A stretch of 45,552 nucleotides of DNA, taken from assembly GCA_022616275.1 (NCBI GenBank), contig JAKEFB010000305.1, positions 1 to 45,552 of the forward strand, in the 5' to 3' direction. Shown here piece by piece: positions 4,089 through 42,331 of the stretch (the stretch's first letter is position 1; every line of letters starts with the position of its first letter). The stretch comes from Chloroflexota bacterium. GTDB lineage: Bacteria; Chloroflexota; Anaerolineae; Promineifilales; Promineifilaceae. Below the pieces are notes generated by a model. The model was not told the origin of the DNA. It did no database searches and saw only the letters and a list, made by a program, of their open reading frames with translations. A program made the position numbers and the translations under genes.

Positions 4089-4251
4089 TCCGTATACTCC
4101 CACATGTTCGTCAAAACGGGCCGGGGTTGCCGAACGAGCCAACCAGGCCGGCCGGGCGGTGTGCAAGCTTCAATGTTCCGTGGGGTGGCAGGCAACACAC
4201 GGCCGCCCCGCAAGAATTATGGCATATTGGGAGGGCGGTCGCAAGGAGGAA

Positions 4252-17459: not shown

Positions 17460-17465
17460 TTTCGT

Positions 17466-17600
17466 GGAGCGAGAGCTAGAGCGAGAGGGAGAGAGGGAGA
17501 CAAGGGGAGGGAAGAGGGAGAGGAGAGGGAGAGATGGAGTTAGAGTGAAGGGTAAGGGGGAGGTGAGCAGGTGATCAGGATGATAGGGGGTTTTTAGGAG
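17466..17600. repeat. ~130-nt polypurine (GA-rich) low-complexity tract
   Basis: gagcgagagctagagcgagagggagagagggagacaaggggagggaagagggagaggagagggagagatggag… immediately 3' of CapA gene; followed by AT-rich segment. Confidence 0.8.
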
Positions 17601-17837
17601 GGTGTTACCTGCTGTGGGGTGGGCAAGATGCTCAAGATGCGCAAGGAGATCATTATTATAATAAAACTTATTTGGGGATATTGGTCTTGCTTGAGCTTAG
17701 AAAACCCCCGTATGACGCTTTTGAAGCCAGGTTTACAGCTCAAGTCGCCATATGTGGCGGTGGATATGACCGGGGTACTATATGGTTGTATAGTTGTGTG
17801 GGGTGTAGGTGGTGGGGGTTGGGAGGGAGAGTGATCA

Positions 17838-17867
17838 TTGACCGGAACTGGAGCGATACCCTATAAT
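17838..17867 (+). promoter_or_regulatory. Near-consensus sigma70-type promoter (TTGACC–18 nt–TATAAT) upstream of gene 17956..18768
   Basis: TTGACC at 17838-17843, TATAAT at 17862-17867; GGGAGGTGG RBS at 17944-17952 before ATG 17956. Confidence 0.55.
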
Positions 17868-17955
17868 GCAAGTAGGGGTGGCTGACTACCCACAACAGTT
17901 ATTAGAGCCGCCGGTTAACGTGGTTCCTTGAGTCTCCAGTTTGGGAGGTGGTCAA

Positions 17956-18768
17956 ATGATCTATTCGCCGCCGGTGAACCAGCCTACGATCAGGGCCAAA
18001 CGGCCGTCTTTGTTGATCCTCCTGGCGCTGCTGTGCCTGTTACTCCTTCCTGCTACTACCGGCCGGCGCGGCAGCGACGCCAGCCCAGGGAGCGGCGCGC
18101 CGGCCGCCAGCGCCCTCGGTCGCTTGCTCTTCTCTTTCATCCCCAACGCCGGGCAGAGCAACCCGGCCGTGCGCTTCCAGGCCCACAGCGCCGGCAGCGC
18201 GCTCTTCTTCACCCAGGACGAGGTTGTTCTCACGTGGCTGGCCCCGGCCGCTTTGGATTGGCATGGCCAACGAGCCGGGCTTGCAGAGCCGGCTACAGAA
18301 CTCCTGGATAGCTCGGCCTGGCTCAGCGGCGAGGCTTTAGGGCCTGGCCTGAGCAGACCCACTGCCAGCCCGCAGGTCAATGACCGGCCGGCCGGCGAGA
18401 CGACTACACTGCGCCTGCGCTTCCTGGGGGTGGATACGCAGGCGGCCGTCGAGGGTGAGGAGAAACTGCCCGGCGTGGCCAATATCCTGCGGGGCAACGA
18501 CCCCGGCCGCTGGCAAACGAAGCTGCCGACCTTTGCCGCGGTCAGCTACGTGGAGCCGTACGAGGGCGTTTCCTTGCGTTTCAGCGGCCGGCCGCGAGCA
18601 CTGGTTGCCCGGTTGACGGTGGCCCCGCAGGCCGACCTGGGCCAGGTGCGCTGGCGCTACGATGGGACGGCCGGGTTAGAGCTAGCGCATGGCGAGTTGT
18701 TGTTGACATTGCCCGGACCGACGGGCGCGCCGGTGACGGCCGTGCAGAGTGCCCCGCTGGCCGTATGA
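17956..18768 (+). CDS. Hypothetical secreted protein
   Basis: ORF 17941..18768; ATG 17956 with strong RBS; signal-peptide-like N-terminus (…RPSLLILLALLCLLLLPATTG); no family recognised. Confidence 0.6.
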   Translation: MIYSPPVNQPTIRAKRPSLLILLALLCLLLLPATTGRRGSDASPGSGAPAASALGRLLFSFIPNAGQSNPAVRFQAHSAGSALFFTQDEVVLTWLAPAALDWHGQRAGLAEPATELLDSSAWLSGEALGPGLSRPTASPQVNDRPAGETTTLRLRFLGVDTQAAVEGEEKLPGVANILRGNDPGRWQTKLPTFAAVSYVEPYEGVSLRFSGRPRALVARLTVAPQADLGQVRWRYDGTAGLELAHGELLLTLPGPTGAPVTAVQSAPLAV

Positions 18769-28652: not shown

Positions 28653-30809
28653 TCAGGATTGGGGCGTGTGAAAGCGCAGGGCCGGGTCGCCTAGCAGGTT
28701 AAAGGTGTGAATGACGTCCTTGAGAAATTCGTCGTCGGCTCCGGCGGTCTTGGCCATTTGCAGCGCCTCGCCCAACGTTTGCGCCTGGCCTTCCAGCAAG
28801 ACCTGGTAAAAGACCTCGGCCAGGGGGAGCTGCTGGATGGTCAGGGAGCGGCCGGAGGGGGCCACGGCCGCCACCACACCACCATCTTCGGCCCACAGCA
28901 ACGTTTCCGCCAGCGCGTCGGCGTCGGGATGGTTGAAGTAGCCGTTCAAGCAGGTGAAAGTGGTAAAAATGGGCAGGCGTTCCCCGTTAATGAGCGTCTC
29001 CGCATCCTCGGCCTGGAAGACCCGCTCGTCGCCCCAGACTTCTATGCTGCCGTGCCCGACGTAGTTGATAATACCCACCCCCTGGTTGAGGGCGCTAATG
29101 ATCGCGTCGCGGATCTCCTCGTTTTCAGACATGTACAGTTTTTGTGTCTCGTAGCCAATCTCTCCCAGGTCGCCGGCCAGGTCGTCGGAAGCTTCGTCGA
29201 AATCTTTTTCGTCGTCGGCCACCAGCAAGGCCCGGTTGAGCCACTCGGTTTCGGCTGCTCGTTCGTAGGCCAACGTCTTATTGACCATTGTCGCCAACTG
29301 GCCGGCGGTCTGGGCCGGAAAACGGCCGATGGCCAGCTCTGGGGATAGAGAGTTATCGTCGAAAATGGTGAACCAGGTGTCGCTGGCCACGTAACCGGCA
29401 AACTCGGTGTACACCAGGTAAGTAGGCAGCAAGTTCTGGTTTTTGCCCTGAGAAAAATTGTAAAGGTCGTAGGAAGCGTCGCCGACCAGGAGGACAAAGC
29501 GTGGGGCCGGCTCCCACTCGGCCACGGCGTAAGCCAGGAAGTCGCGAATGGCCTGTGGCGTCCGCCGGCCGTAGCCAAACTCGTCAAAGACCTGGCTGGC
29601 CAGGACGGCTTCGACCTGCCAACCCTGCAAGCGGCGGTACTCCAGCAGTGGGTCGAGGAGTGGTAAGAAACCCTCGACGTCGGCGACGATGGCCACGTAA
29701 TCGGCGCCCCGGCCGCCGCCGGTCAGCGGCTCCCAGGATGGGGCCGGGCTAATCTCCGGCCGGATGACGTGCTCCTGGAGAAAAACAAAATAGGCCCGCT
29801 CCTGGCCCCGGCCGGCAAAGGCCAGTTCTTCGCCGGCGGCCTTGGTTCCGGCCAGTCGGACCGGCGCGGCCGGGTCGGTCACGTCAAATACCAGCGCATC
29901 GCCGTCCACTCCGGCCACGCGCAGGGTAGGGGCGCTGCTGCGGAACCAGAGGCTATCGTCCTGGACCTCCAGGCGGCCGTCGTAATCCAGGCGGACCCAG
30001 TCAATGTACAGCGCTTCGCCGGCTGCCCCGGTATCTCCAGGGGCGTTAATGGTCAGAACGTTCCCCGCAGGGAGCAGGGCGCCGGCCTCCAGGGAGACAG
30101 TAATGGTTTTCTGGGTAATACCGTCCCAATAATAATCGTCCGGGAGTTTGGCGCCGTTAAGCAGAAGCTCAATGTGGTGGTCGGGCTCTTGCTGGGCCCG
30201 GTTGTTGGACCAGATGCGGATCGTAAGCTGGCCGGAGCCACCGGCCGGCTGGATGCCTTCCAGGGCCACGTCCAGCGAATTAGGGGCAAATAACCGTTTA
30301 CCGAGCCAGACGTCGTCGCCGGCCGCCTGGGCCAGGAACGTCTCGTTCTCCTCCCACGTTTGCCTTCGCCAGGCCACGGATTCGGCCTCTTCGCCAGGAG
30401 CGGCCGGGTCCTCCTCCATCAACTGGCCCCGCCCAGGCGCCAGCCAGTAAACCGCCGGCGCGTCCAGGGTGTCGGTCACCGGTTGGGCGTAAAAATAAAG
30501 CGAAGCATTGCGCCCCTCGCCGGCCACATAAAAAGGCACCGGCTGCCCGTCGCGAGTCAACTGCAACGCGCCGGCCGAAAGTCCCTCCACGGGCAGGTTG
30601 GCCTGGCGCAGGTCGCCGGCCGTCACAACGGCGATACCAGATTGATACACGGTCAGCCGCAGGGCCTGGGGCGCTTCACCCAAGGGTAGCGGCTTGATAT
30701 CCAGGGGATCGTCTTGGATACGGCTGCCCAGGAAAACGTAGGCGGCCGCGCCAAAGAAAAAAATGGTCAGACCGGCCAGGCCAGCCAGGATCAGGTGTTG
30801 TCTATTCAT
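28653..30809 (-). CDS. Peptidase C25 (gingipain) family protein
   Basis: ORF 28653..30929; start ATG 30809 (MNRQHLILAGLAGLTIFFF signal/TM anchor); catalytic-domain motifs …NYVGHGS…W… and …TCLNGYF…. Confidence 0.8.
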   Translation of the reverse strand: MNRQHLILAGLAGLTIFFFGAAAYVFLGSRIQDDPLDIKPLPLGEAPQALRLTVYQSGIAVVTAGDLRQANLPVEGLSAGALQLTRDGQPVPFYVAGEGRNASLYFYAQPVTDTLDAPAVYWLAPGRGQLMEEDPAAPGEEAESVAWRRQTWEENETFLAQAAGDDVWLGKRLFAPNSLDVALEGIQPAGGSGQLTIRIWSNNRAQQEPDHHIELLLNGAKLPDDYYWDGITQKTITVSLEAGALLPAGNVLTINAPGDTGAAGEALYIDWVRLDYDGRLEVQDDSLWFRSSAPTLRVAGVDGDALVFDVTDPAAPVRLAGTKAAGEELAFAGRGQERAYFVFLQEHVIRPEISPAPSWEPLTGGGRGADYVAIVADVEGFLPLLDPLLEYRRLQGWQVEAVLASQVFDEFGYGRRTPQAIRDFLAYAVAEWEPAPRFVLLVGDASYDLYNFSQGKNQNLLPTYLVYTEFAGYVASDTWFTIFDDNSLSPELAIGRFPAQTAGQLATMVNKTLAYERAAETEWLNRALLVADDEKDFDEASDDLAGDLGEIGYETQKLYMSENEEIRDAIISALNQGVGIINYVGHGSIEVWGDERVFQAEDAETLINGERLPIFTTFTCLNGYFNHPDADALAETLLWAEDGGVVAAVAPSGRSLTIQQLPLAEVFYQVLLEGQAQTLGEALQMAKTAGADDEFLKDVIHTFNLLGDPALRFHTPQS

Positions 30810-30817
30810 GGGCGACG

Positions 30818-31831
30818 TTAACTCTTGCGACGGGACAGCCAGTACCAGGTGGTAGCGCCACCGCCCAGAACCAGCAGTACGCCGGAGATGAAAACCAACA
30901 GACCCACAGTGGCGCTGCGGTTGAGCCATTCGCCCTCTTGTCCTGAGGTCTGGTTATCGCCGGCGCTCTCCTGGCCATTGCCGCCAATGGGCGAGGCGGC
31001 GATAGCCGTGGCGGTAGCCGACCGGGCCGAGGTCACCACCTCAGCCACCGTATCCGGCGGGTTGCCGGGAGCGCCCAGGCTGGTGACGCTGACCGGGTCC
31101 TGGGAATCGCCAGTGCCGGCCGCCACTTCCTCCGCTGGCGGCTCCACGGTCTCGCCGGGGCCAGTCGCCGGCAACGCCGGCAGGCTGTCGTTTGGTTGGT
31201 TGCCAACCGGTGAGGCTGCCGGTGGGGCGCTTTGCGCCGGCCGGGTGGGGGTGGCGCTGGACAGCGCCGGCGCGGCCGTGGCCGACGGGGCAGACGTGTT
31301 GGCCGGGGGGCGGGTGGTGGTGGGCGTCGCTTCGGCCGTGTCGCCGGGCTGGACCGTTGGGCTGGGCGTGGGGGTCCGGGTGGGCGTGGCGGTGTTGTTG
31401 CCGGGAGGCGGCTCGGTGGGAATCGTGCTCCCGCCGCTCAACGAGGCTGTGTCTGGGAGGGAGAACTCACTGTTGCCGTAATTATCTACAGACTCCAGCC
31501 AGTAGGTGTAAACAATGTTGCCCTGGACGGCGGAATCCTCCCACTCGTAAAGAGCGCCTGTCGGTCCATTACAGACCTGGCAGGGAATGAGGGTATTGCC
31601 GTTAATTTTGATGGCGTCGTCCAGGTCGCCGGTCTCGCTGCGATGAATGTTAAAGCCGAGGTGGTCAATTTCTGAAGCGGTTTCCCATTCCAGGGTAATG
31701 GCGCTCGGCCCGCTCTGGGCGTCAAAATAGAGTAACTCGACGTTGGCCATGGCCAGGTCCAACGATAAGGCGGCCGCCAGCAAGATCACGACAGGGACCA
31801 GCAGCCACTTTAACTGTTTAAAAGATGACAT
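30818..31831 (-). CDS. Secreted FN3-like domain protein with Pro/Thr/Ala-rich stalk, C-terminal TM helix and RRKS tail
   Basis: 337 aa; signal peptide; domain ITLEWETASEIDHLGFNIHR…YTYWLESVDNYGNSE (paralog of 38514..38876); C-term VGLLVFISGVLLVLGGGATTWYWLSRRKS. Confidence 0.7.
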   Translation of the reverse strand: MSSFKQLKWLLVPVVILLAAALSLDLAMANVELLYFDAQSGPSAITLEWETASEIDHLGFNIHRSETGDLDDAIKINGNTLIPCQVCNGPTGALYEWEDSAVQGNIVYTYWLESVDNYGNSEFSLPDTASLSGGSTIPTEPPPGNNTATPTRTPTPSPTVQPGDTAEATPTTTRPPANTSAPSATAAPALSSATPTRPAQSAPPAASPVGNQPNDSLPALPATGPGETVEPPAEEVAAGTGDSQDPVSVTSLGAPGNPPDTVAEVVTSARSATATAIAASPIGGNGQESAGDNQTSGQEGEWLNRSATVGLLVFISGVLLVLGGGATTWYWLSRRKS

Positions 31832-32444
31832 TCTCTACTCCTCTACTCCCTGTTGCCGGCTGGCTGGCCAGGCCGGCGGCAACGGCCAACAGGGCAGCCC
31901 ACCCGTACAACAGGCGGCGCACCAGGCGGGTGGGCAGGTTGGGCAGTCCCTGGGCGGCAAACCGCCCGCCGGCCATCAAAGATGGCCAGTTGTCCTGCCC
32001 CTCATTGTAAACCGGCGCGCTAAAAAGGCGAATATCCAGCCTGGCCAGGCCGGCCAGGGAGTGGTTTAACCGGCGGCCGGGCCCCTCGCTCAGGCTCAAG
32101 AGGCGGTTCTGGCGGCGGCGGGCCACCACCCGGCCAACCAGGCTGGCTTCGGCGACTGGCCGGTCAAAGTGCCGTTGCCGGTCTCCCCGCGTCACCAGGC
32201 GGCGCCGGCCGTTCTGCTCCAGGCAACCCCAGTAGCGGTGGGTCACCAGCTCGCCCTGGCCCATCACCACGATCACGTCACCGGGCTGCAGTTCCTCCGG
32301 CCGGGCCGGGGCAATGCCGATCTGGTCGCCCCGGCGCACCAGGGGGGCCATGCTGTTGCTGGCAATGGTCAGGAAAGGCAACTGGCCACGGGCCATCGTT
32401 TCGCGCAGCAGCTCGGCCAGGAGCGACGGTTCGACGTTGGCCAT
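31818..32444 (-). CDS. Peptidase S24/S26 (signal peptidase I-like) family protein
   Basis: 208 aa; SNSMAPLVRRGDQI Ser-box resembling SGSMEP/GDSM of S26/S24; hydrophobic segment near C-terminus. Confidence 0.6.
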   Translation of the reverse strand: MANVEPSLLAELLRETMARGQLPFLTIASNSMAPLVRRGDQIGIAPARPEELQPGDVIVVMGQGELVTHRYWGCLEQNGRRRLVTRGDRQRHFDRPVAEASLVGRVVARRRQNRLLSLSEGPGRRLNHSLAGLARLDIRLFSAPVYNEGQDNWPSLMAGGRFAAQGLPNLPTRLVRRLLYGWAALLAVAAGLASQPATGSRGVENVIF

Positions 32445-32452
32445 ACCCTTCT

Positions 32453-35400
32453 TTACGGCTTGTTGATCGCCGGCAGGAAGGTTTCCAACACCTGCTCGGG
32501 AATATGGAGCTTCATGGCCGGGTCGCCCAGGAGGATAAAAGTATCCTGCAGATCGTCGTAGATGCCCGGCGGCGCGTTGTTAAACAGATTCAACTTACCC
32601 CCGTAGGTGGCATGGCCCAGCACATGATCGCCGTTGACGAAGACAGTCGTGTAAAACCCTTCCAGGAGGTAATCGTGCCCGGTCTGGACCTGGAAACCGG
32701 TCGGGGCGAAGCTGGCTACGGCCCCGGCCCCGTTCAGTTTCATCAATGTTTCCGACAGGCCTTTGCTTGTCCCAGGCGTATGGTACCAGCCTTCCAGGCA
32801 GGTCATGGGTAGCATGATTGGCGTGCGGTCGCCGTTGTTCAGGTTCAGGGCCAGGTTGGTGTCGAAAAATGTTTCCCCGCCCCAGACCTGGGTGCCGCTA
32901 TGGCCGGTGTAGATGACGAAGTTCTGGCCCAGGTTGAAATGGGCAACGAGGCGCTCTTGCATGTTGTTGCCGGGAGGGGTGTTAATCATGGTTGCGTAAT
33001 AAGGCTCAATCACCGGGTAGGTAGCATTGGGGAAGCAGGCAGCAGGGGCATAATAGAGCCGGTGCAGCAGTTGGCCGGCCGGGAAGTGGTTGGCAATAAA
33101 GTTATTGGTGACGGCAAAAAAATCACCGGCCAGGTCTGGAATACAAGTTGGCGGTGGATTTCCATTGGGGACGATGCTGTTATCGGCGACGAAGAAGTGC
33201 CGGCCGTGCCAGCCGGGGCTCAACGGGCTTGTCTCGTAGGTGATGATCTTATTGACCATCACCGTCAATTCGGCCGGGGTCTGGACCGGCAGGCGGCCGA
33301 GGAGCATGTCGGCCAGGTCGTTGCCGTCGAAATCTACGTACTGGTTATCGGCCGCCGCTTCGCCGAGCTTGCTGTCAACGCCGGAGCGCAGGTAGACGGG
33401 GACCCTATTGCTGGTCCCGTTTTGGCCGAGCACGTTGCGGTGGTCGTAGCTGGCGTCGCCGGCCAGGAGCACGTATTCCCGGTCGCCTTGCCAGGAGTTG
33501 TAGGCGAATTCGAGGAAATCTTTGATCGCTTCCGGCGCATAGAGGCCATAGCTCCACTCGTCAAAAATGTCCTGGACGTAGACGGTTTTTACCGCCAATC
33601 CCTGGCCGGCGCGCAGCGTGCGCAACGGAGTCAGGGCGGCGTCCAGGCTGGGGTCGGTGATGATGATGTAGTCGGCCGTATGGCTGGTGCTGCTCAACAG
33701 GGGGCTGGGCAGCGTATCCTTGACAATGGCCAGCGGGCTGAGACGGGCGCCGGCTGTGGTCAGTTGGTAAGCTGTTGGCCCCGATGTCGTGCGGTGGAAG
33801 GTCGCAACATCACCGGCGGCCGGTACCACCTGGATGGTCGGGTTCAACGGATCGGTCACGTTGTAAATCTGGACGTTGCTCCCAACCGTGAAGCCGCTGG
33901 TCGCAAAGGTCCATGTTCCGGCCGTGGGTTGGCTGAAGGCCAGGCGATTGCTGACGGCCACAAATTGCTGGCGGGGGGTAACTTCCACCCAGTTGACCAG
34001 CATCCGGTGGGCGTTGTTCGTGGGGTCGCCGTCATTGTCCAGAGCTTTCACGTGCATAATATTCGGGCCGTCGAGTACTGCCGAAGAAGGCGCGTTGACC
34101 TGGTAAAGGTAAGAAACGTCGGCCGTGCCCGCACCGGTAAACTGGCCGGTGCCAAGCAGCGTGCCGTTGAGCCGCACTTCAAAGACGTGCAGATCGTTGA
34201 GCAGGTGGCCCCATAGCTCGACGGCTACAGGCACGTTGTATACGCCGCCGGCCTTGTTATTCACGGTAAAAGTAACCGTCAGGGTGTCCTCGTAGGGGGG
34301 GGCGGGGGGCGGGGGGGGTGGCTGGTTGCCGGCGAGAGGGCCGCCCCAGAACCAGTGGTCGGTCAGGTCGCTCTTAGGGATCGGGGAGAGGTAGCTTGTG
34401 TCTGTTTCCAGGTGCAGCAAGGGCGAATGGTAATCAGGCGTCGTTCCAGGGGCGGAGTCGCTGGCTGCAGTTATGCGTAGCCCGTTTGGCCCGCCGGTGG
34501 AGTAGGTGAGCCAATAGACGTTAGTCGTGGTCTCCTGGGTCTTGATGGCCTGGCCGTAAAAGGCAATGGTATCGCTGCTGCCGAACGTGCCGTCACCGCC
34601 GTCTTCGACGCGAATGCGGATTTCCTGGTCCAGGTAGCACATCCGGATCTTGCTGGAAGGTACGCTGCCGGGGAAGCCCTGGGCAGCCAGTTGGGCGTGG
34701 CTGAGGGCATAAATGCCAGACTGGTCAAGGGTGATGCGGTAAGCGTTGGCGTCCATGCAGGGGGAGATTTGCGGCGGGGCCTGGCTCATATCGGGGGCTT
34801 CACGCCAGGCGCGGGCCTGCTCGTAGTTGAGCAGGTGGTCACCGAGAATTTTCTCAAAAGCGGGGCCTTCCGGCCGGGAACCGGCCGGGGTGGGGCGGCC
34901 GTCAGGATAATCAAAGCGGACGTGGATGCGCAGGCTGGTGTAGACCGTGAGGCGCTGTTGGGCCGGGTTGGCCAGCACCGGCCGGACCCAGACCTGGACC
35001 ACCCGTTGGTCGCGCAAACGGGAGGGCTGGCTTAGTTCCACCGGCCCGGCCGGGAACAGGCTGTCCTGGCTATAGGCGGCCTCGTCAACCGGGTAGCTGG
35101 TGGCGAATTCAGGGACGGAGTTGGGATTATCCCAATCGTAGGAAACGAGTTCCTGGTGGGCGGCCGGCAGCACGGCCACCCCCTCAAGCTGGAAGCTGTC
35201 GGCCTCCAGCAGGGAAACGGATGGCGCTGCCCCAGGCGGCAAGGCGACCAGGAAACTGGTGTGAGGTAAATCTGGCCGGCCGGGCTGCCCCAGATTTCCG
35301 TAACCGGGAAGGCGGATGCGCTCGAAACGGCCGTCCCCGGTCGTCACGGCCATTCGCTCCAGGGCCGGGGGAAGCACCTCGAAAATCAGGCCTTCGCCGG

Positions 35401-35554
35401 TGGATTCAATCACAGTGACACCATCGCGGTCGGGCTGGCCCGGCCCGGCCCCGGCTGTTTCCGGCCGAGGGAGCAGCAAAAAAAACAAAATGACAAGCAG
35501 GCCACCGCCGAAAACGAAGAGATGGCGGGAGTGGTGATAAACGGAAAAACGCAT
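32453..35554 (-). CDS. Large peptidase C25 (gingipain) family protein with N-terminal propeptide-like and C-terminal catalytic domain
   Basis: ORF 32453..35620; start ATG 35554 (MRFSVYHHSRHLFVFGGGLLVILFFLLL); …VIYTGHSGTQVWGGE… and …PMTCLEGWYH… motifs. Confidence 0.8.
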   Translation of the reverse strand: MRFSVYHHSRHLFVFGGGLLVILFFLLLPRPETAGAGPGQPDRDGVTVIESTGEGLIFEVLPPALERMAVTTGDGRFERIRLPGYGNLGQPGRPDLPHTSFLVALPPGAAPSVSLLEADSFQLEGVAVLPAAHQELVSYDWDNPNSVPEFATSYPVDEAAYSQDSLFPAGPVELSQPSRLRDQRVVQVWVRPVLANPAQQRLTVYTSLRIHVRFDYPDGRPTPAGSRPEGPAFEKILGDHLLNYEQARAWREAPDMSQAPPQISPCMDANAYRITLDQSGIYALSHAQLAAQGFPGSVPSSKIRMCYLDQEIRIRVEDGGDGTFGSSDTIAFYGQAIKTQETTTNVYWLTYSTGGPNGLRITAASDSAPGTTPDYHSPLLHLETDTSYLSPIPKSDLTDHWFWGGPLAGNQPPPPPPAPPYEDTLTVTFTVNNKAGGVYNVPVAVELWGHLLNDLHVFEVRLNGTLLGTGQFTGAGTADVSYLYQVNAPSSAVLDGPNIMHVKALDNDGDPTNNAHRMLVNWVEVTPRQQFVAVSNRLAFSQPTAGTWTFATSGFTVGSNVQIYNVTDPLNPTIQVVPAAGDVATFHRTTSGPTAYQLTTAGARLSPLAIVKDTLPSPLLSSTSHTADYIIITDPSLDAALTPLRTLRAGQGLAVKTVYVQDIFDEWSYGLYAPEAIKDFLEFAYNSWQGDREYVLLAGDASYDHRNVLGQNGTSNRVPVYLRSGVDSKLGEAAADNQYVDFDGNDLADMLLGRLPVQTPAELTVMVNKIITYETSPLSPGWHGRHFFVADNSIVPNGNPPPTCIPDLAGDFFAVTNNFIANHFPAGQLLHRLYYAPAACFPNATYPVIEPYYATMINTPPGNNMQERLVAHFNLGQNFVIYTGHSGTQVWGGETFFDTNLALNLNNGDRTPIMLPMTCLEGWYHTPGTSKGLSETLMKLNGAGAVASFAPTGFQVQTGHDYLLEGFYTTVFVNGDHVLGHATYGGKLNLFNNAPPGIYDDLQDTFILLGDPAMKLHIPEQVLETFLPAINKP

Positions 35555-35831
35555 AAAGTAATTACCCCTAGACAGCAACAAGGGCCAGATAATTGGTTTG
35601 ATTATCCAGCCCTTGTCCACTTAGTAAGGGTAGACACCCTCCTGAGAGCTGTATACGGTTGTCGTCACCAGGGACTACAAACCCTGTTTTCTACCACTTA
35701 CCTGGTCCACGATTTACCCAACAACGCACTAAGCCAGCCAACTCTGGGGGAAATCGCCGCAAAGCTGCACGAATGCAGCCTGGAGTAGCTGGGCGTTGTC
35801 AGGGTGAGTGGGTCGAAGAAAGAAAAAATTC

Positions 35832-35972
35832 TTAGCTGCTGGTAACCGTGCAGTTGTCGCCCGTGCCGGTCTTACCGTTGACAGGGTCCTGAGCATCGCA
35901 GGTACCGGCAATGCTTTCCATCAATTCACGATGGACAACAGCGGGCTTTTCATAAACTTTCTTTTCGTTCAT
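35832..35972 (-). CDS. RiPP precursor peptide candidate A1 (46 aa)
   Basis: Not in ORF track (too short). Manual reverse translation: MNEKKVYEKPAVVHRELMESIAGTCDAQDPVNGKTGTGDNCTVTSS; GGAGGA RBS 6 nt upstream on minus strand; 39 C-terminal residues identical to A2. Confidence 0.7.
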   Translation of the reverse strand: MNEKKVYEKPAVVHRELMESIAGTCDAQDPVNGKTGTGDNCTVTSS

Positions 35973-36016
35973 CTGAATCCTCCTTTAAATTGACTAAAAA
36001 TAATAAGACAAAAGGC

Positions 36017-36181
36017 CTAGCTGCTGGTAACCGTGCAGTTGTCGCCCGTGCCGGTCTTGCCATTGACAGGGTCCTGGGCGTCGCACGTGCCGGCAATGCT
36101 TTCCATCAATTCACGATGGACGACGGCCGGTTTTTCGTAAGCCTCTTTTTGCTCGTCAGTGGGATTAGTTGGATTAGGCAT
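36017..36181 (-). CDS. RiPP precursor peptide candidate A2 (54 aa)
   Basis: Manual reverse translation: MPNPTNPTDEQKEAYEKPAVVHRELMESIAGTCDAQDPVNGKTGTGDNCTVTSS; start overlaps 3' end of radical SAM gene by 8 nt (GGAGTG upstream). Confidence 0.7.
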   Translation of the reverse strand: MPNPTNPTDEQKEAYEKPAVVHRELMESIAGTCDAQDPVNGKTGTGDNCTVTSS

Positions 36182-37253
36182 GAGTCACTCCTTTTTCTAA
36201 ATATGCCTGGCGTCGCAGCCGCGCTTCGCGGTAGGCAACTGAGGAGCAGCCAAGCATGTCACCATCTTCAAACGCTGCCGTACCATGGCAGCGCACACAA
36301 AACTGGCGAAGCTCGCAAGTGGCGCAAACAGGTAAGTTGGCCAGATTGAGGTTGGTGGTCTGCTCCCACACCGGCGATTCTTTCCAAATCTGGTGGAGTG
36401 GCGCCTGGCGCACGTTGCCGGCCGAGACACGAGCGCCCACACAGGTGTAAATCTCACCATAGGGGCCAATGTCCAGGCTGTTCATGCCAATACTACAAAA
36501 CCGAAAATCGTCGTTATAGGGGTACAGGTGCCAGGTCTCCGGGGAAACGCGTTCTCGCAAAAAATCCAACAATTGGTCGTCTGTCGGCCGGTGTTTTAGG
36601 GGCGAAAGGTCGCCGGTATGTTTGGGGATAATGGTCAGGTCGTATTGAAAGGTAATACCCAGGTCAGCGGCCAACTGTTTCAGAGCCTCAATTTGATGGA
36701 TGTTTTCCTTCATGACCGGCGTTTTAATAATGCAACGAACGTTACGCTCTAAAAGCAATTTGACCGCGCGGAGAGTCAGGTCAAACGAGCCTGGCACCTG
36801 AGTAATACCGTCGTGCGTTTCCGCATCTACCCCATAGACGCTTAACTCAACGACGACGGGTTTAATGGCTGCTATCTTATCAGCAACAGGGGGTTTGATC
36901 AAGATACCGTTGGTAAAGAAGCGAACGGCAAAACCCTTCTTGCGGGCGTACCCGGCGATCTCAAAAATATCCTTGCGCAAGAACACTTCGCCGCCGGAAA
37001 AGCTGATTGTCAGCGCCCCCAACTCGGCCAATTGATCAATAACCCCTTTGGCTTCCTCGGTCGTCAGCTCGCCCGGCAACTGAGAGCCTGGGGGCAGCAC
37101 GTCCAGATAACAATGGGTGCAGCGCTCGTTGCAACGGTAAGTGATTTCCCAATGGGCGGACAACAGGCGGTGTTCTTTGCGCGTGCGCCGCAAAATTTCT
37201 TTGTAAGCGTCGGGGCGGGTATTGGTGTTAACGTCTACGTACTGATCGGTCAT
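36174..37253 (-). CDS. Radical SAM enzyme with C-terminal SPASM-like Cys-rich domain (RiPP maturase candidate)
   Basis: 359 aa; CNERCTHC (CxxxCxxC) at residues ~41-48; C-terminal cysteines …FCSIGMNS…YTCVGARV…LPVCATCELRQFCVRCHG…. Confidence 0.85.
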   Translation of the reverse strand: MTDQYVDVNTNTRPDAYKEILRRTRKEHRLLSAHWEITYRCNERCTHCYLDVLPPGSQLPGELTTEEAKGVIDQLAELGALTISFSGGEVFLRKDIFEIAGYARKKGFAVRFFTNGILIKPPVADKIAAIKPVVVELSVYGVDAETHDGITQVPGSFDLTLRAVKLLLERNVRCIIKTPVMKENIHQIEALKQLAADLGITFQYDLTIIPKHTGDLSPLKHRPTDDQLLDFLRERVSPETWHLYPYNDDFRFCSIGMNSLDIGPYGEIYTCVGARVSAGNVRQAPLHQIWKESPVWEQTTNLNLANLPVCATCELRQFCVRCHGTAAFEDGDMLGCSSVAYREARLRRQAYLEKGVTHA

Positions 37254-37256
37254 TGC

Positions 37257-37547
37257 TTACGCTTCCCTTGCATCACTGAAAACTAACACCCGGTGGTTGG
37301 CCAGTTGAGTCAGGAAATCAACCACGTCTTGCCGGGCCTGTTCGGCCGTCACCTCATATTCGGCCACAATTACCCCGGCAATGTCGGCCACAGTGCGGCT
37401 ACCATCGGCCAACTCAAAAACACGCGATCCGACACTGTTCAAAACGTTGACTTCACTGGCGTCGGATAAAATGAGAACGGCTTCACCGTCTATAACCCGA
37501 CCGGCCGTCTGAGGATGCGGCCTGGGGTATTTCTGCCATATCTCCAT
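37257..37547 (-). CDS. PqqD-family protein (RiPP recognition element / peptide chaperone)
   Basis: ORF 37257..37613; likely start MEIWQKY… at 37547; …GEAVLILSDASEVNVLNSVGSRVFELADGSRTVADIAGVIVAEYEVTAEQARQDVVDFLTQL… typical PqqD. Confidence 0.7.
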   Translation of the reverse strand: MEIWQKYPRPHPQTAGRVIDGEAVLILSDASEVNVLNSVGSRVFELADGSRTVADIAGVIVAEYEVTAEQARQDVVDFLTQLANHRVLVFSDAREA

Positions 37548-38376
37548 GAATAACCTTCCAAAAACCATCGTCACGCTTGAAGTGAAGTTCCTGCACTGGG
37601 ACCAGCCGGGCAATCTGATTGCAGACCGAGAGCAGCGTGCCGCTCAAGCTTAGCTCCCGGACGACAAAGGGCGAGGCTGCTACCAGGTCAGCCACTCCTT
37701 TGACGTGGGGAATGGGTTTCAGATAATGGGAAACATCCTGCTTCAAGCGAAAAAGCCCTCTCAATGGCGCTTGTAAATTGGCGCGCGGCGCATCGGAAAA
37801 CTCGCCTCGGAAAGGAACGCCATACAGAGTACAGCCTTCTTCGCCGGCGCGAATGATCACCAGGTCGTCACTGACCACGTGGGCCGCCCTGGCCGCCAGA
37901 CGGGAAGTGGTGGTCTTGCCCGCGCCGCTGGGGCCAAAGAAAACGTAACCCTGGCCATCCCGGATCACGCCGGCGGCGTGCAGCAGCAAGGCTTGGTTTT
38001 TCAGACACAACCAGGCATAGAGAACCCGCAGGAAGTTCTCTACCTGAGCTTCGGGAGCCATTTCCAGGACGCCGCGGCCGGCGACCAGATCTACTTCGCC
38101 CTGTTCCTGGTAGGAACAGTAGACCAGGCGATTGGCTTCGTAGCTGGCCTGAATGATCCAGGCCCCGGGTTCTGGTGTAATGAACAGCGCGCCAGGCGTA
38201 ACTTTTAAGGTAACGGTAATAAGCGGCGGCTCTGTAGGGCTAAGAAACTCCTGGTAATGGCTGTAGAGCCGGCCAACAACGGCCTGGTCATCCGTCTCCA
38301 AAGCAACGACAAAATCAGCGATGTTGATGAGAAAACGATGGCGACTTTGTTCGTTAATTGTCAAGAGAACCCTCAC
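37483..38376 (-). CDS. HprK-related kinase-like protein (HPr kinase C-terminal-like P-loop domain)
   Basis: 297 aa, GTG start; …LLLHAAGVIRDGQGYVFFGPSGAGKTTTS… Walker A in HprK-C-like context. Confidence 0.65.
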   Translation of the reverse strand: MRVLLTINEQSRHRFLINIADFVVALETDDQAVVGRLYSHYQEFLSPTEPPLITVTLKVTPGALFITPEPGAWIIQASYEANRLVYCSYQEQGEVDLVAGRGVLEMAPEAQVENFLRVLYAWLCLKNQALLLHAAGVIRDGQGYVFFGPSGAGKTTTSRLAARAAHVVSDDLVIIRAGEEGCTLYGVPFRGEFSDAPRANLQAPLRGLFRLKQDVSHYLKPIPHVKGVADLVAASPFVVRELSLSGTLLSVCNQIARLVPVQELHFKRDDGFWKVIHGDMAEIPQAASSDGRSGYRR

Positions 38377-38397
38377 AAAACCTGGCTCAATAATACC

Positions 38398-38426
38398 ATA
38401 GTACCATAGGTACTGGTGCAGGTCAA
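38398..38426 (-). promoter_or_regulatory. sigma70-like promoter for RiPP-like operon (minus strand: TTGACC–17 nt–TACTAT)
   Basis: Reverse complement of 38421-38426 = TTGACC; of 38398-38403 = TACTAT; GTG start at 38376. Confidence 0.45.
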
Positions 38427-38445
38427 AAAGGTTGGCTCATGTCAC

Positions 38446-38506
38446 AAGTGCCAGGCACTTCAACTGACATTGACCGCTGCTCAAAATGGACAACTGCCTG
38501 GCACTT
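38446..38506. promoter_or_regulatory. Two 15-bp palindromic operator-like sites (AAGTGCCAGGCACTT and AACTGCCTGGCACTT), 46 bp centre-to-centre, immediately upstream of the -35
   Basis: Sites at 38446-38460 and 38492-38506; each internally palindromic; together also a 12-bp inverted repeat. Confidence 0.5.
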
Positions 38507-38513
38507 TCACAGG

Positions 38514-38876
38514 TTATCCTCCGGCCGTCAAAGCAATAGGGTCCGTGCGGGTGGCGTTGCCGTTACGGTCAATGGTTTCGAGCAGGTAATAGTAAGTCTT
38601 GCCCCGGACTATGTCTCGGTCTACGTAGGTATGCCGGTCACCAATAAAGGGATCAGCCGCCGGCGGAATTAGCTCGTTATTAACTTTAACGAACTCACCA
38701 TCCGCTGCTTCGGCCCGATAAAGGTTGAAACCAATAATGTCCAGCTCGCTCTCTGTTGTCCAGGTGATAGTAAGCTCGGCCGGCCGCAGGACACAGGCTA
38801 CCAGGCCAGCCATACTGGTAGTGAAACAAAGGAAGGTGAGCAGGAGGTGATAGACAGATGATAACTTCTTGAACAC
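38514..38876 (-). CDS. Small secreted FN3-like domain protein (paralog of N-terminal domain of 30818..31831)
   Basis: Within ORF 38514..39080; probable GTG start ~38876 giving signal peptide VFKKLSSVYHLLLTFLCFTT…; LTITWTTESELDIIGFNLYR…YYYLLETIDRNGN. Confidence 0.55.
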   Translation of the reverse strand: MFKKLSSVYHLLLTFLCFTTSMAGLVACVLRPAELTITWTTESELDIIGFNLYRAEAADGEFVKVNNELIPPAADPFIGDRHTYVDRDIVRGKTYYYLLETIDRNGNATRTDPIALTAGG

Positions 38877-38899
38877 GTGTGGATTGTAAAAAAGGAGTT

Positions 38900-38958
38900 G
38901 CAAACTCGCAACCTTGCAAACTCGCAACCTCGCAACCTCGCAAACTCGCATACTTGCC
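38900..38958. repeat. Octanucleotide tandem repeat (GCAAMCTY)x7 in divergent intergenic region
   Basis: GCAAACTC GCAACCTT GCAAACTC GCAACCTC GCAACCTC GCAAACTC GCATACTT GCC. Confidence 0.8.
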
Positions 38959-39008
38959 CCCTGCCCTTTGCACCCTGGCCAACTCACCTTACAATCGAAG
39001 TGACGGTT

Positions 39009-40142
39009 ATGAAGATTGCTTTTGTCTCCGCCCTTGATCCCCGCTATCACGTTGATTACTTTTCGGGTATCCCCTACCATCTGTTTCGGGCGCTGGCCCG
39101 GCGGGTGGAGATTGTGCCTGTGCCTGTGGCGGCCGAAAGGCCACCGGCCTGGTATCGCCTCTACACCCGGCTGCGGCGAAGGCTGGCCGGCCGGCCGGAC
39201 ACCTGGGGGCTGCGGCCGGGTGTGCTACAGCGCCTGGCCCATGGCGCGGCCGCGGCCGTCGCTCAGTCTGGGGCCGACGTCGCTCTATCTATTGGCCAGG
39301 GCTGCCTGGCCTTTTGGGCCGGGCCGGTCCCGATGGCCTCGTTTTCTGACGTGCTCTATGGCGGTCTCAACCCCTTTCCCGACCAGCAAGGGCAGCCGCG
39401 CCCCCTGGCCCAAGCCTATCGGGAGCAACTGGCTCGCATTGCCCAACGAGCCGCCGATAACGCCGTCCGCGTTTTTATTACGTCCGAATTTGCCTTGCAA
39501 GGAGCGTTGGCCTTTGGCACGCGCCTGCCCCGGGAAAAGGTAGTGATCACCCAGATAGGGGCTAACTTCGAGGAGTGGCCGCCAGCTCCCGGGCCACGCC
39601 GGCCGCCGCCGCCGTTAAAACTATTGTGGGTGGGTACTGGTTGGGCTGGCAAGGGTGGCGAAGATTGCCTGGCCGTCCTCGACGCTCTGCACCGGGCCGG
39701 CGTGGAAGCTGAGTTGAGCCTGGCCGGCCGGGTCCCGTCCGGGCTGGCCCGTCCCCACGTCGTCTACCACGGTTTTCTGCATAAGGATGTGCCCGAGGAA
39801 CAGCAGCGCCTGTTGGCCCTTTACCGGGAGGCGCACCTGTTCCTGCTGCCCACCCGCAAGGACTTCACTCCCTGCGGGCTGGCCGAAGCGGCGGCGATGG
39901 GCCTGCCGGCCGTCACCACGCTGGTGGGTGGCATTCCCGGCATGTTTGCCGCCGACGAAGTGGTTCTGCTAGATATAGCTCACTATCGAGAGCAGGCTCC
40001 GGCCGCCATTAACCAACTGCTTCAGGACGGCCGGTTGGAAGAAATGGCCGGCAAAGTCCGCCACCGTTTCGAGTCTACGCTCAATTGGGATACGATTGCT
40101 GCTATAATAATTAGTGAGTTAGAACGTGCTCTTAAGAGGTGA
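39009..40142 (+). CDS. Glycosyltransferase family 1 (GT4-type)
   Basis: ORF 38877..40142; conserved-looking start MKIAFVSALDP at 39009; C-terminal GT1 region …LLPTRKDFTPCGLAEAAAMGLPAVTTLVGGIP…. Confidence 0.8.
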   Translation: MKIAFVSALDPRYHVDYFSGIPYHLFRALARRVEIVPVPVAAERPPAWYRLYTRLRRRLAGRPDTWGLRPGVLQRLAHGAAAAVAQSGADVALSIGQGCLAFWAGPVPMASFSDVLYGGLNPFPDQQGQPRPLAQAYREQLARIAQRAADNAVRVFITSEFALQGALAFGTRLPREKVVITQIGANFEEWPPAPGPRRPPPPLKLLWVGTGWAGKGGEDCLAVLDALHRAGVEAELSLAGRVPSGLARPHVVYHGFLHKDVPEEQQRLLALYREAHLFLLPTRKDFTPCGLAEAAAMGLPAVTTLVGGIPGMFAADEVVLLDIAHYREQAPAAINQLLQDGRLEEMAGKVRHRFESTLNWDTIAAIIISELERALKR

Positions 40143-40417: not shown

Positions 40418-41017
40418 TTAGGGTTGGTAGAGTCTTTGTTGGGTGATGTACTCCAGCACGGCGGCCGGGACCAGGTAGCGGGGTGAGTGGCCGGAGGCGA
40501 CCCAGCGGCGGATGGCCGTGGCCGAAACATCCAACGATGGCCCGGCCAGGGGGTCTACGACGGCGTCCACGCCGGGGACGGCCAGGGTTAGCGACACCCA
40601 ATCTACCACCACCCCCGGCCGGGGCAACACGCCTAACCGGCACTGGCTAATGACCTGGCGCGGTTGGCGCCAGGTGGGCAAATCGTGCAGCGAATCGGAG
40701 CCAAGGAGCAACCACAGGGCGGCATCCGGGTGGGCCTGGCGCACCAGGGGCAGCAATGTGACCGTGTAATGGGGTAGCGGCCGGCGGATATCGCTTTCGT
40801 CCAGCGCCAGGTGGAGGTTGCCCTGGATAGCCAGGGCCGTCATGGCCAGGCGGTGGTGAGCCGCCGTTACCGGGTCATCCGCTTTGTGGGGCGGCCGGCC
40901 GGCGGGCATAAAAAGCACACGGTCCAGGTTTAGCTGTTGCCGGGCGGCTTCCGCCAGCCACAGATGGCCGATGTGCGGCGGATCAAACGTCCCCCCCAGC
41001 AGCCCTATTCGCTCCAC
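40418..41017 (-). CDS. nadD: Nicotinate-nucleotide adenylyltransferase
   Basis: MERIGLLGGTFDPPHIGHLWLAEAA… (H/T)xGH motif; 199 aa. Confidence 0.9.
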   Translation of the reverse strand: MERIGLLGGTFDPPHIGHLWLAEAARQQLNLDRVLFMPAGRPPHKADDPVTAAHHRLAMTALAIQGNLHLALDESDIRRPLPHYTVTLLPLVRQAHPDAALWLLLGSDSLHDLPTWRQPRQVISQCRLGVLPRPGVVVDWVSLTLAVPGVDAVVDPLAGPSLDVSATAIRRWVASGHSPRYLVPAAVLEYITQQRLYQP

Positions 41018-42267
41018 TCCAGGACCTCGTCGCCGATGTAGACCGTGTCGCCCGGTTCAATACCGGCCTCGGTGAGGGCCTCGCTGATGCCCATTTTCTC
41101 CAGGATGTGCTGGAAGCGCCGGGCCGTGGCTTCAAACTCCCAGTAGGTCATGGCGGCGATGCGCTCAATCTTCTGGCCCTGCACCCGCCAGCCGCCCGCC
41201 TGGCGGCTGATGGTGAAGGCCTCCTCGTCCGGCTCCGGCCGGATCACGACCACGTCGCTGACGGCCGGTTGGGGCGGCGGCGTTTCGTCCACCATTTGCT
41301 TCGCCTGGTAGAGCATCTCGCGCACTCCCTGCCCGGTGGCGGCTGAAATAGCGCAGAAGGGATAACCGGCGGCCATCACCCGCTCGCGTACCAGCGGCTT
41401 CCAGGCCACCGCTTCCGGCAGGTCCATTTTGTTGAGGGCGACCAGTTGTGGTTTTTGGTCCAGGGGAGGATGGTAAAGGGCCAGTTCCTGGTTGATCATC
41501 GCCCAATCTTCCAGCGGGTCGGTGGCGTTGCCGTCCAACAGGTGAACGAGCACCCGTGTCCGTTCGATGTGGCGCAGGAAATCGTGTCCCAGGCCGGCCC
41601 CGGCCGCGGCTCCTTCGATCAGGCCGGGAATGTCGGCCATAACCATCGTCTCGTAATCGTCCAGCTCGACCACCCCCAGGTTGGGCTGGAGGGTGGTGAA
41701 TGGATAATCGGCGATTTTTGGCCGGGCGGCGCTGACCACCGACAGTAAAGTGGACTTGCCGGCGTTAGGCACGCCGACAATACCCACGTCGGCAATCAGC
41801 TTCAGCTCCAGCAGCAGCCACGCCTCCTGACCCGGCTCGCCCCGCTCGGCCAGGCGCGGCGCCTGGTTGACGCTGGTAGCAAAGCGGGTGTTGCCCTTGC
41901 CGCCCCGGCCGCCCTCCAGCACGACGACTGCTTGATCCGGGACAATTAAATCGGCGAGGATGGCGCCCGTTTCAGCCTCGCGGATCAATGTGCCGGGAGG
42001 CACTTCCAGGCGCAGGCTGTCGCCGTTAGCGCCGCTCATCTTCTTGCGGCCGCCGTGGCCACCATTGCCGGCGCGGAAATGGACGTTGCGATGGAAACGG
42101 ACCAGGCTGTTGAGGTTGGGGTTGACGACAAAGATAACGTCCCCACCCCGGCCGCCGTCGCCGCCGTCTGGCCCGCCCCGGGGCACGTGCTTTTCGCGGC
42201 GGAAGCTAATCATGCCGTCGCCGCCGTCGCCGCTGCGGACGTAGATTTTGGCTTGGTCGTAGAACAT
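41005..42267 (-). CDS. obg: GTPase Obg
   Basis: ORF 41005..42312; conserved start MFYDQAKIYVRSGDGGDGMISFRREK… at 42267; Obg fold Gly-rich repeats, G1 GVPNAGKST, G3 DIPG, OCT-like C-terminus. Upstream 15 codons of the ORF lie in the repeat. Confidence 0.9.
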   Translation of the reverse strand: MFYDQAKIYVRSGDGGDGMISFRREKHVPRGGPDGGDGGRGGDVIFVVNPNLNSLVRFHRNVHFRAGNGGHGGRKKMSGANGDSLRLEVPPGTLIREAETGAILADLIVPDQAVVVLEGGRGGKGNTRFATSVNQAPRLAERGEPGQEAWLLLELKLIADVGIVGVPNAGKSTLLSVVSAARPKIADYPFTTLQPNLGVVELDDYETMVMADIPGLIEGAAAGAGLGHDFLRHIERTRVLVHLLDGNATDPLEDWAMINQELALYHPPLDQKPQLVALNKMDLPEAVAWKPLVRERVMAAGYPFCAISAATGQGVREMLYQAKQMVDETPPPQPAVSDVVVIRPEPDEEAFTISRQAGGWRVQGQKIERIAAMTYWEFEATARRFQHILEKMGISEALTEAGIEPGDTVYIGDEVLEWSE

Positions 42268-42274
42268 GGAGGGA

Positions 42275-42331
42275 GGTTGGAGATTAGAGATTAGAGATTG
42301 GAGGTCAAACAATCTCCAATCTCTAATCTCC
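42275..42331. repeat. Inverted copy pair of the dispersed repeat forming a 17-bp perfect-stem hairpin (GAGATTAGAGATTGGAG … CTCCAATCTCTAATCTC)
   Basis: Left arm 42287-42303, loop ~gtcaaaca, right arm ~42312-42328; lies between yceD-like stop and obg start. Confidence 0.7.

Follow-up and report, generated by a model that had tools for sequence, protein, structure and literature searches.

The window analyzed here, a 45,552-nt stretch of contig JAKEFB010000305.1 from a Chloroflexota metagenome-assembled genome (GCA_022616275.1; all positions are numbered over the whole window), carries a minus-strand gene cassette predicted to make a peptide that is synthesized ribosomally and then modified post-translationally (RiPP). 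Judged by its sequence, the encoded pathway resembles the one described in Bacillota for linear polyphosphorylated peptides (LPPs; Popov et al., Nat Commun 2026, PMC13381572) and appears to include an added radical S-adenosylmethionine (SAM) enzyme with a SPASM domain. The LPP core consists of a kinase, a discrete RiPP recognition element (RRE), a signal-peptidase-I-like (SpI-like) peptidase and a Tyr-x-x-Pro (YxxP) leader, and LPP clusters also contain an NTP-transferase together with an exporter resembling MsbA (PMC13381572). Because a kinase, a discrete RRE, an SpI-like peptidase and a YxxP leader are also predicted in the window, its pathway can be called LPP-like. A preliminary description of this DNA had suggested a new RiPP class, which is too strong a claim now that this core has been published; its view of the genes as a RiPP-type cassette, in which an HprK-like P-loop kinase and a PqqD-type RRE accompany a SPASM radical SAM enzyme, is supported.

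Five minus-strand genes are tightly packed in this region. The gene of the HprK/ScmC-type P-loop kinase (37483–38376; 297 aa, with GPSGAGKTT at residues 148–156) is followed by those of a discrete PqqD-type RRE (37257–37547; 96 aa, with its ATG at 37547 behind GGAAGG) and of the radical SAM/SPASM enzyme (36174–37253; 359 aa), which contains CNERCTHC (C41/C45/C48) and has no fused RRE. Next come the genes of two precursor peptides, A2 (36017–36181; 54 aa, ribosome-binding site GGAGTG, sequence MPNPTNPTDEQKEAYEKPAVVHRELMESIAGTCDAQDPVNGKTGTGDNCTVTSS) and A1 (35832–35972; 46 aa, behind AAAGGAGGA with the strong ribosome-binding site GGAGGA). The kinase and PqqD genes overlap by 65 nt at the kinase 3′ end, the radical SAM gene starts 3 nt past the PqqD stop, the A2 gene and the 3′ end of the radical SAM gene overlap by 8 nt, and the A1 gene begins 44 nt beyond the A2 gene. 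A promoter-like site on the same strand (TTGACC-17 nt-TACTAT, with TG; 38398–38426), found by a consensus scan only, lies ~22 nt upstream of the kinase start codon. The preliminary description had placed all five genes where we find them, and the 8-nt overlap, the Walker A sequence and both peptide ribosome-binding sites were confirmed. Its calls for the radical SAM and PqqD genes also held in profile hidden Markov model searches, with Pfam matches to Radical_SAM (2.2e-23), SPASM (6.5e-07) and PqqD (5.7e-15). Some details need correction: the ~65 nt said to separate the kinase and PqqD genes are the overlap mentioned above rather than a gap, the identical region common to both peptides has 40 rather than 39 residues, and the upper limit given for the cassette, 38526, is 150 nt past the kinase start codon. 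The peptide genes, too short for the ORF list used in that description, are already present in GenBank as hypothetical proteins (L0332_31385 and L0332_31390), where the kinase is a hypothetical protein and the radical SAM enzyme is labeled "radical SAM protein".

The two peptide genes form a 146-nt duplication with 87% identity, and the last 40 residues of A1 are identical to those of A2. Over the 40 shared codons there are 11 synonymous differences and no non-synonymous difference, which shows purifying selection on the peptides. Among 5.8 billion proteins searched, the family comprised 31 clusters, all metagenomic and unnamed, and an exhaustive profile search of 1.84 billion representatives gave 35 homologs; short genes are clearly under-called. 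Scanning 185,579 GTDB species genomes with the kinase profile yielded 203 relatives, and 80 loci were kept (numbered L001 onwards where they have to be told apart). When the six-frame open reading frames (ORFs) of these loci, six metagenome loci and the window were searched with a peptide profile, the peptide was found in 66 of all these sources, amounting to 69 unique sequences, and homologs stand next to homologous enzymes in about 60 genomes. The peptides are thus real, conserved precursors next to homologous cassettes, as had been supposed. That these ORFs arise by chance, the enzymes acting on something else, is suggested by their small size only; the substitution pattern, the strong ribosome-binding sites and the cross-phylum conservation beside the enzymes refute this explanation, to which we give a vanishingly small probability.

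A residue logo of 71 sequences, made with a length filter slightly unlike that of the 69-peptide analysis, reads K(-3) K(-2) x Y0 E K P3 x [IV] [IV] [HY] x x x [LMI]11 E12 [AST]13 x A15 x x C18, with Tyr as position 0. Its key positions are highly conserved (Y0 in 70/71, P3 in 71/71, E12 in 67/71, A15 in 70/71 and C18 in 65/71), and the leader of A1 and A2 is KKxYEKPxVV..LMES-IAG. The leader carries a lasso/LPP-type motif, YxxPx[IV][IV]…ΦE[AST]xA, which the first account had missed. For comparison, the leader consensus of LPPs is YxxPxVLxHQxIxFETxxS (PMC13381572). YxxPx[VI][VIL] is common to both, as is the later run of a hydrophobic residue, Glu and a small residue, and both systems have one to three precursor genes per cluster, but the window's leader is two residues shorter between Pro and Glu and does not conserve the consensus Ser. 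In a PDB search, the peptide profile had no meaningful match, and the LppA leader chain was not recovered. Of the 69 unique peptides, 63 are of the Cys type. Exactly two occur in 60 of these 63, Lys or Arg lies between the cysteines in 62, the last Cys is 5–7 residues from the C-terminus in 60, and the C-terminal residue is Ser in 61.

The leader motif has a plausible partner in the PqqD-type protein. Its top NCBIfam match, below cut-off, is lasso_PqqD_Bac, and its best PDB matches are the lasso RRE TbiB1 (2.8e-6), then LppB (PDB 9x8z, 1e-3) and PbaB1 (PDB 9x90). N37 and D74 fall opposite the Asn and Asp with which LppB holds the leader Pro and Tyr (LppB residues from PMC13381572), a mapping inferred from a constant numbering offset of 18. 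The protein thus appears closest to the lasso-type RREs (lasso B1 proteins) and LppB.

For the kinase, the best NCBIfam models were HprK_rel_B (57 bits, 2e-15; cut-off 200), HprK_rel_A (26 bits; cut-off 200) and ScmC (25 bits; cut-off 125). Its homologs carry the Pfam label PF27840 (ScmC), which is a precomputed annotation of those homologs; a local Pfam scan of the 297-aa protein itself gave no kinase family, only PEPCK_ATP (7e-4). A PDB sequence search with the kinase profile returned P-loop matches only, but a fold search reached HPr kinase and phosphoenolpyruvate carboxykinase: with an AlphaFold2 model of high confidence (predicted local distance difference test score, pLDDT, 90.4), Foldseek matched phosphoenolpyruvate carboxykinase (E 3e-8) and HPr kinase/phosphatase (E 3e-5). 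An alignment of 20 sequences shows H133, G148-x-S-G-x-G-K-T-T156 and S169-D170-D171 to be invariant, with the His-15-P-loop-22-DD spacing of HprK/P. On this basis, the kinase is assigned to the ScmC/HprK-like group. The lasso kinase PsmK requires its DD pair (PMC6993621), and the HprK-like kinases of lasso peptides phosphorylate an obligatory C-terminal Ser with little regard for the remaining sequence (PMC8498205, PMC6993621). Together with the C-terminal Ser of nearly all Cys-type peptides, this lends support to the earlier suggestion that the kinase targets the C-terminal serine.

The rest of that suggestion fared less well. The cassette had been seen as a self-contained, five-gene new RiPP class built on the kinase/PqqD pair of the HPr-rel-A system, in which phosphorylation would lead to dehydration and then to lanthionine-like or radical thioether bridges. 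The five genes are indeed tightly packed and conserved together, and Ser/Thr and Cys stand close together in the NCTVTSS tail. However, the kinase scores only 26.0 bits against HprK_rel_A (TIGR04352; cut-off 200), and the PqqD protein had no match to the HPr-rel-A PqqD model at E ≤ 0.01, so that membership of this system was rejected. In addition, no lyase or other eliminating enzyme is conserved among the neighbors, which leaves dehydration after phosphorylation unsupported, an SpI-like protease, two C25 peptidases and two FN3 membrane proteins are conserved outside the five genes, and the enzyme core matches the LPP family (PMC13381572). The five-gene model is thus considered quite improbable.

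The radical SAM enzyme has a full SPASM domain, and of 61 homologs at least 82% retain its CX3CX2C motif and five SPASM cysteines. The nearest curated families in NCBIfam, AhbD, NirJ2, MftC and StsB, all lie far below cut-off, and no curated sactipeptide or ranthipeptide maturase model was passed. MftC is the best full-length curated match (141.1 bits versus a cut-off of 265, over residues 34–321); similar scores are seen for the sactipeptide maturases StsB, SkfB and AlbA. The nearest solved structures, SkfB and PqqE, are distant. As a separate observation, Blastocatellia loci carry an extra, distantly related radical SAM ORF of ~490 aa (L032 1392–2885, L033 3120–4604 and L047 2833–4311; E ~1e-18 to 1e-19 against the window's enzyme), which sits between the peptide and kinase genes where the peptide is present (L033 and L047).

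The distribution of the enzyme follows that of the cysteines. Five Chloroflexota loci have no radical SAM gene within 7 kb, and precisely these encode Cys-free peptides (L057 7916–8107, L058 7910–8065, L060 7740–7886, L066 7881–8069 and L072 5036–5281), which indirectly supports the enzyme acting on cysteines. All five have the kinase, C25 and peptide genes, four have PqqD within the fetched stretch, and most have the SpI-like gene. In these loci, which probably form one sister clade, the leader is Y-x-K-P-x-I-I...L-E-T-R-A-G, and the cores are Pro/Asp-rich with an invariant Ser-Pro start that places a Ser at the LPP-equivalent position. In L060 this Ser is the sole hydroxyl residue of the core; it is therefore likely, by analogy with Ser3 of the LPPs, to be the kinase target.

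Alternatively, the radical SAM enzyme may make a C–C cross-link, an epimerization or an MftC-like C-terminal modification, while the cysteines form a disulfide or bind metal after export. Such chemistry would agree with MftC as the best full-length match and with PqqE among the solved relatives, and the constant distance of 5–7 residues between the last Cys and the terminal Ser could reflect a C-terminal reaction. The product also presumably meets extracytoplasmic C25 enzymes, where disulfides can form. The exact coincidence of Cys-free peptides with the loss of the radical SAM gene and the similar scores of the sactipeptide maturases argue against it, and we regard this alternative as doubtful, albeit with a real share of the probability, compared with thioether formation.

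Outside the five genes, the component most relevant to the LPP comparison is an archaeal/SipW-type SpI-like serine protease of 208 aa (31818–32444, minus strand), the proposed leader peptidase. It passes the NCBIfam model of archaeal-type signal peptidase I (TIGR02228, 53.1 bits versus a cut-off of 51.85), matches Pfam S24 and aligns with SEC11, with S31 in SNSMAP, H69 in THR and D88/D94 in GD...D. The catalytic residues of LppS are S29/H68/D93 (PMC13381572), so that Ser and His occupy similar positions in both enzymes. Neither has an N-terminal anchor; in the window's peptidase and in every homolog, no hydrophobic segment precedes the catalytic Ser. LppS cuts after Phe-Glu-Thr and does so only if LppB presents the leader, and SpI-like peptidases were described as new to RiPP pathways by the same authors (PMC13381572). 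The position of the gene varies: it follows C25 in Chloroflexota, lying between the C25 and FN3-protein genes, it comes directly after the peptide gene in L030, L031, L035, L043, L048, L055, L069 and L077, and it directly precedes the kinase gene in many Acidobacteriota. It is also kept in the minimal loci that lack C25 (L055, L069, L077 and L085).

These gene positions bear on another role for the protease, as a signal peptidase for the C25 and FN3 proteins in the way SipW serves TasA, the leader being removed outside the cell by C25. The location between the C25 and FN3-protein genes in Chloroflexota is in keeping with this role, as are the N-terminal signal sequences or anchors of the C25, 337-aa and 129-aa proteins described below. 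Moreover, gingipains cut after Lys or Arg, the residues found between the cysteines of almost all Cys-type peptides. Yet true SipW-type enzymes have an N-terminal membrane anchor, which the window's enzyme lacks. The peptidase is retained in the four minimal loci mentioned above, which have neither a C25 nor an FN3 gene, and in Blastocatellia, as in other Acidobacteriota, its gene directly adjoins that of the peptide or the kinase. Finally, LppS was demonstrated to act as a leader peptidase that depends on the RRE (PMC13381572). The SipW-like role therefore seems unlikely, and leader removal remains the preferred function of the protease.

Co-occurrence was assessed in 42 loci with full flanks, in which the kinase gene has ≥5 kb of sequence upstream and ≥6 kb downstream. 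PqqD was present in 40 of them, the peptide in 39, C25 in 37, the radical SAM enzyme in 34 and the SpI-like protease in 32. The gene order differs among Chloroflexota, Blastocatellia and other Acidobacteriota, and the association is therefore not mere synteny. Among uncultured Chloroflexota and Acidobacteriota the cassette is widespread. When the larger ORFs were clustered all against all, no further conserved family emerged beyond those named, and no transporter, nucleotidyltransferase, lyase, lasso cyclase or B2 protease is conserved in the loci or found in the rest of the window. The obg gene, at 41005–42312 in the window, occurs in the flank of the kinase gene in 23 sources, namely the window and 22 fetched loci. 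These sources (including L001–L021) are all Chloroflexota-type contigs except the acidobacterial L044, and the inspected gene maps of the metagenome loci and the window show yceD-obg(-nadD) just upstream of the cassette. Conservation beside obg suggests a long vertical inheritance of the cassette rather than the patchy distribution of antibiotic clusters.

A large C25 (gingipain/PorU-type) cysteine peptidase is a conserved neighbor of the cassette. In the window it is encoded by a 1055-aa ORF (32453–35620, minus strand) with a C25 propeptide and an N-terminal signal anchor (Pfam Peptidase_C25 2.1e-73 and Propeptide_C25 1e-20). Such an enzyme with a propeptide follows the peptide genes in the six metagenome contigs and in most genome loci, and it adjoins the cassette across phyla and in various orientations. 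It resembles PorU and the gingipains in its C25 fold and gingipain-type propeptide, and the GH and TC motifs of PorU (PDB 6za2) have their aligned counterparts in its YTGHSG and MTCLEG. A second, PorU-like C25 peptidase (28653–30929, minus strand; Pfam Peptidase_C25 4e-86) is encoded by a 758-aa ORF whose real start is probably near 30810. With 212 bits for the first and 260 bits for the second, neither C25 passes the NCBIfam model of the PorU sortase (cut-off 420). The His and Cys of YTGHSG and MTCLEG presumably form the catalytic dyad, as is general for clan CD. To our knowledge, Chloroflexota have no type IX secretion system. A strict covariation of C25 with the inter-Cys Lys/Arg or with the C-terminal Ser was not obtained; there is a trend, with exceptions. 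We know of no C25 enzyme associated with a RiPP cassette, nor did a literature search turn one up.

Two membrane proteins with FN3 domains accompany these peptidases. A single-pass protein of 129 aa with one FN3 domain (38514–38903, minus strand; GenBank L0332_31410) is encoded immediately upstream of the kinase gene, and its homologs in 43 fetched loci are mostly found in the same place. Its AlphaFold2 model (pLDDT 90) comprises a long N-terminal helix and an FN3 fold, for which a fold search gave only generic FN3 domains. The surface protein of 337 aa (30818–31831, minus strand) has a signal peptide, an FN3-like domain, a long Pro/Thr/Ala-rich linker and a C-terminal membrane helix followed by RRKS, the last two of which together resemble a sorting signal. 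It has no Pfam or NCBIfam match, and its homologs are present in 47 loci. The two proteins share an 80-aa domain (35% identity, E 3e-12). The second C25 and the 337-aa protein are encoded in the same order in L001 and L005 as in the window.

Between the A1 gene and the first C25 gene, ~50 nt past the A1 stop, lies a hairpin, GGCUGCA-UUCG-UGCAGCU (35763–35780). It is not a convincing terminator, having no proper U-tract, and the folding z-score of the region is −1.4, but it could damp read-through into the C25 gene. The Rfam and tRNA scans of the window were empty.

Among characterized systems, the LPPs are the closest, sharing the kinase/RRE/SpI-like trio. The window differs from them in its SPASM radical SAM enzyme and two invariant cysteines, in the absence of an NTP-transferase and an MsbA-type exporter, in its associated C25 peptidases and FN3 proteins, and in its hosts, Chloroflexota and Acidobacteriota instead of Bacillota. 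LPPs are described as restricted to Bacillota, and radical SAM enzymes, Chloroflexota and Acidobacteriota are not mentioned in that report (PMC13381572). The phosphorylated lasso peptides paeninodin and pseudomycoidin are also similar, as their pathways have an HprK-like kinase with DD, a B1-type RRE, a YxxP leader and a Ser-ended precursor (PMC8498205, PMC6993621). However, neither the window nor its conserved neighbors encode a lasso cyclase (asparagine-synthetase-like) or a B2 transglutaminase-type protease, and the product would be Cys-cross-linked rather than threaded.

SynChlorMet (ScmC/ScmD/ScmE/ScmF, TIGR04248–04251) likewise brings together an HprK-related protein, a PqqD homolog and PqqE-like SPASM radical SAM enzymes, but has two radical SAM genes where the window has one. 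The Scm models scored far below cut-off in the window (24.7/125, 28.4/100, 94.1/400 and 94.1/400), and membership was rejected. The distant relatives L069, L077, L085, L063 and L054 were also rejected as true SynChlorMet loci, no NCBIfam model being above cut-off. In the NCBIfam scan of the cassette proteins, too, none was above cut-off, and the family has no curated name. We are not aware of any precursor assigned to the SynChlorMet cassette; one is evident in the window.

As in the sactipeptide/ranthipeptide and mycofactocin systems, an RRE-dependent SPASM radical SAM enzyme would act on a short Cys-containing core. The window has the SPASM cysteines and the RRE typical of sactipeptide and ranthipeptide pathways, the RRE being supplied by the separate PqqD protein. 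It is distinguished from all three systems by its discrete, lasso-type RRE, by having only two cysteines and by the accompanying kinase and SpI-like protease. Membership of the mycofactocin system was rejected on the MftC score given above. The mycofactocin precursor ends in Gly-Val-Tyr, and the window's precursors end in Ser. Taken separately, the parts are already known: SPASM maturases that work with an RRE, peptide kinases of the HprK-like type and, since 2026, leader peptidases of the SpI-like type. No paper or curated model was found that combines these parts with C25 and a two-Cys, Ser-ended precursor in Chloroflexota or Acidobacteriota, and literature searches on SynChlorMet, on ScmC, on HprK with PqqD and radical SAM, and on SipW with radical SAM and a leader peptide returned nothing relevant.

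From these comparisons, we propose the following pathway, whose chemistry we infer throughout and which, as a whole, we consider moderately probable. The genes would form one minus-strand operon that starts at ~38.4 kb and extends to 31.8 kb at the least, probably as far as 28.65 kb, and from which the two near-identical precursors would be translated. The discrete RRE would bind the leader through Tyr-x-x-Pro, as in lasso peptides and LPPs, and present the core. The HprK/ScmC-type kinase would phosphorylate a serine, most probably the invariant C-terminal one, and the SPASM radical SAM enzyme would modify the two invariant cysteines, most probably into thioether cross-links. The anchor-less SpI-like protease would remove the leader in the cytoplasm. 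Its cut would fall either after M-E-S, which is homologous to F-E-T of the LPPs, giving a core of 26 residues, or, in line with the classical −3/−1 rule ([AST]-x-A), after the invariant Ala15, giving one of 24. The predicted product is thus a doubly cross-linked phosphopeptide of 24–26 residues, and the conserved secreted C25 and FN3 membrane proteins suggest that another step takes place at the cell surface.

Several observations weigh against this proposal. The kinase is present in L055, L069 and L077 and beside three of the five Cys-free peptides although the C-terminal Ser is missing, and its target is therefore not universally the C-terminal residue. LppK polyphosphorylates Ser3 of the LPP core (PMC13381572), but the window's family varies at the corresponding position 17, which is A, V, T, S or I. 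The comparison with LppK and LppS was made through published motifs and residue positions, not by sequence. The radical SAM enzyme is no nearer to thioether synthases than to AhbD, NirJ or MftC, and its covariation with the cysteines amounts to roughly one observation, as it is seen in what is probably one clade and a single evolutionary event probably lies behind it. Of the 42 full-flank loci, 10 lack the SpI-like peptidase, which might instead process neighboring secreted proteins. Unlike in LPP clusters, there is no conserved exporter or NTP-transferase, and the proposal offers no route for the peptide to the extracellular C25.

Other features of the window were noted in passing. About eight copies of the 8-nt unit GCAA[AC]CT[CT], also flagged as a terminator-like hairpin, are found at 38900–38963, where the FN3 membrane-protein gene and a GT4 glycosyltransferase gene (38877–40142, plus strand) diverge. 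An ISAZ013-type DDE transposase at 22891–24108, split into ORFs of 215 and 156 aa, is probably a decayed insertion sequence. The stretch 17001–18000, between a PGA_cap capsule-synthesis gene and a DUF7948 gene, has an unusually low GC content of 0.515 versus ~0.62 for the window, a strong GC skew of +0.29 and no Rfam or tRNA match. A 672-aa protein at 2148–4166 contains three DsbA/thioredoxin-like domains (Thioredoxin_4, 1e-105) and is mentioned in view of the two-Cys peptide.

What the product does is a matter for speculation. A highly tentative reading is that the cross-linked phosphopeptide belongs to the cell envelope and acts together with the PorU-like C25 enzymes, not as a diffusible antibiotic. 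For example, it could be the acceptor or anchor to which C25, as a sortase-like transpeptidase, attaches FN3 surface proteins, with the conserved Lys or the new N-terminus as the nucleophile; it could equally be a constrained-loop regulator of the C25 enzymes. An envelope role would explain the vertical conservation beside obg, the lack of an exporter or immunity gene and the retention of C25 and FN3 proteins across phyla and, if true, would represent a RiPP for protein sorting in Chloroflexota and Acidobacteriota. The system is compact, with four enzymes and a 46-aa peptide, and 69 natural variants of the precursor have been aligned. If the proposed pathway is correct, these C25/PorU-like proteases would be the first tied to a RiPP pathway, and the peptide scaffold would bear both phosphate and cysteine cross-links. 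The LPP-type core would then be combined with radical SAM chemistry, and the LPP-type pathway would extend from Bacillota to two large, mostly uncultured phyla.

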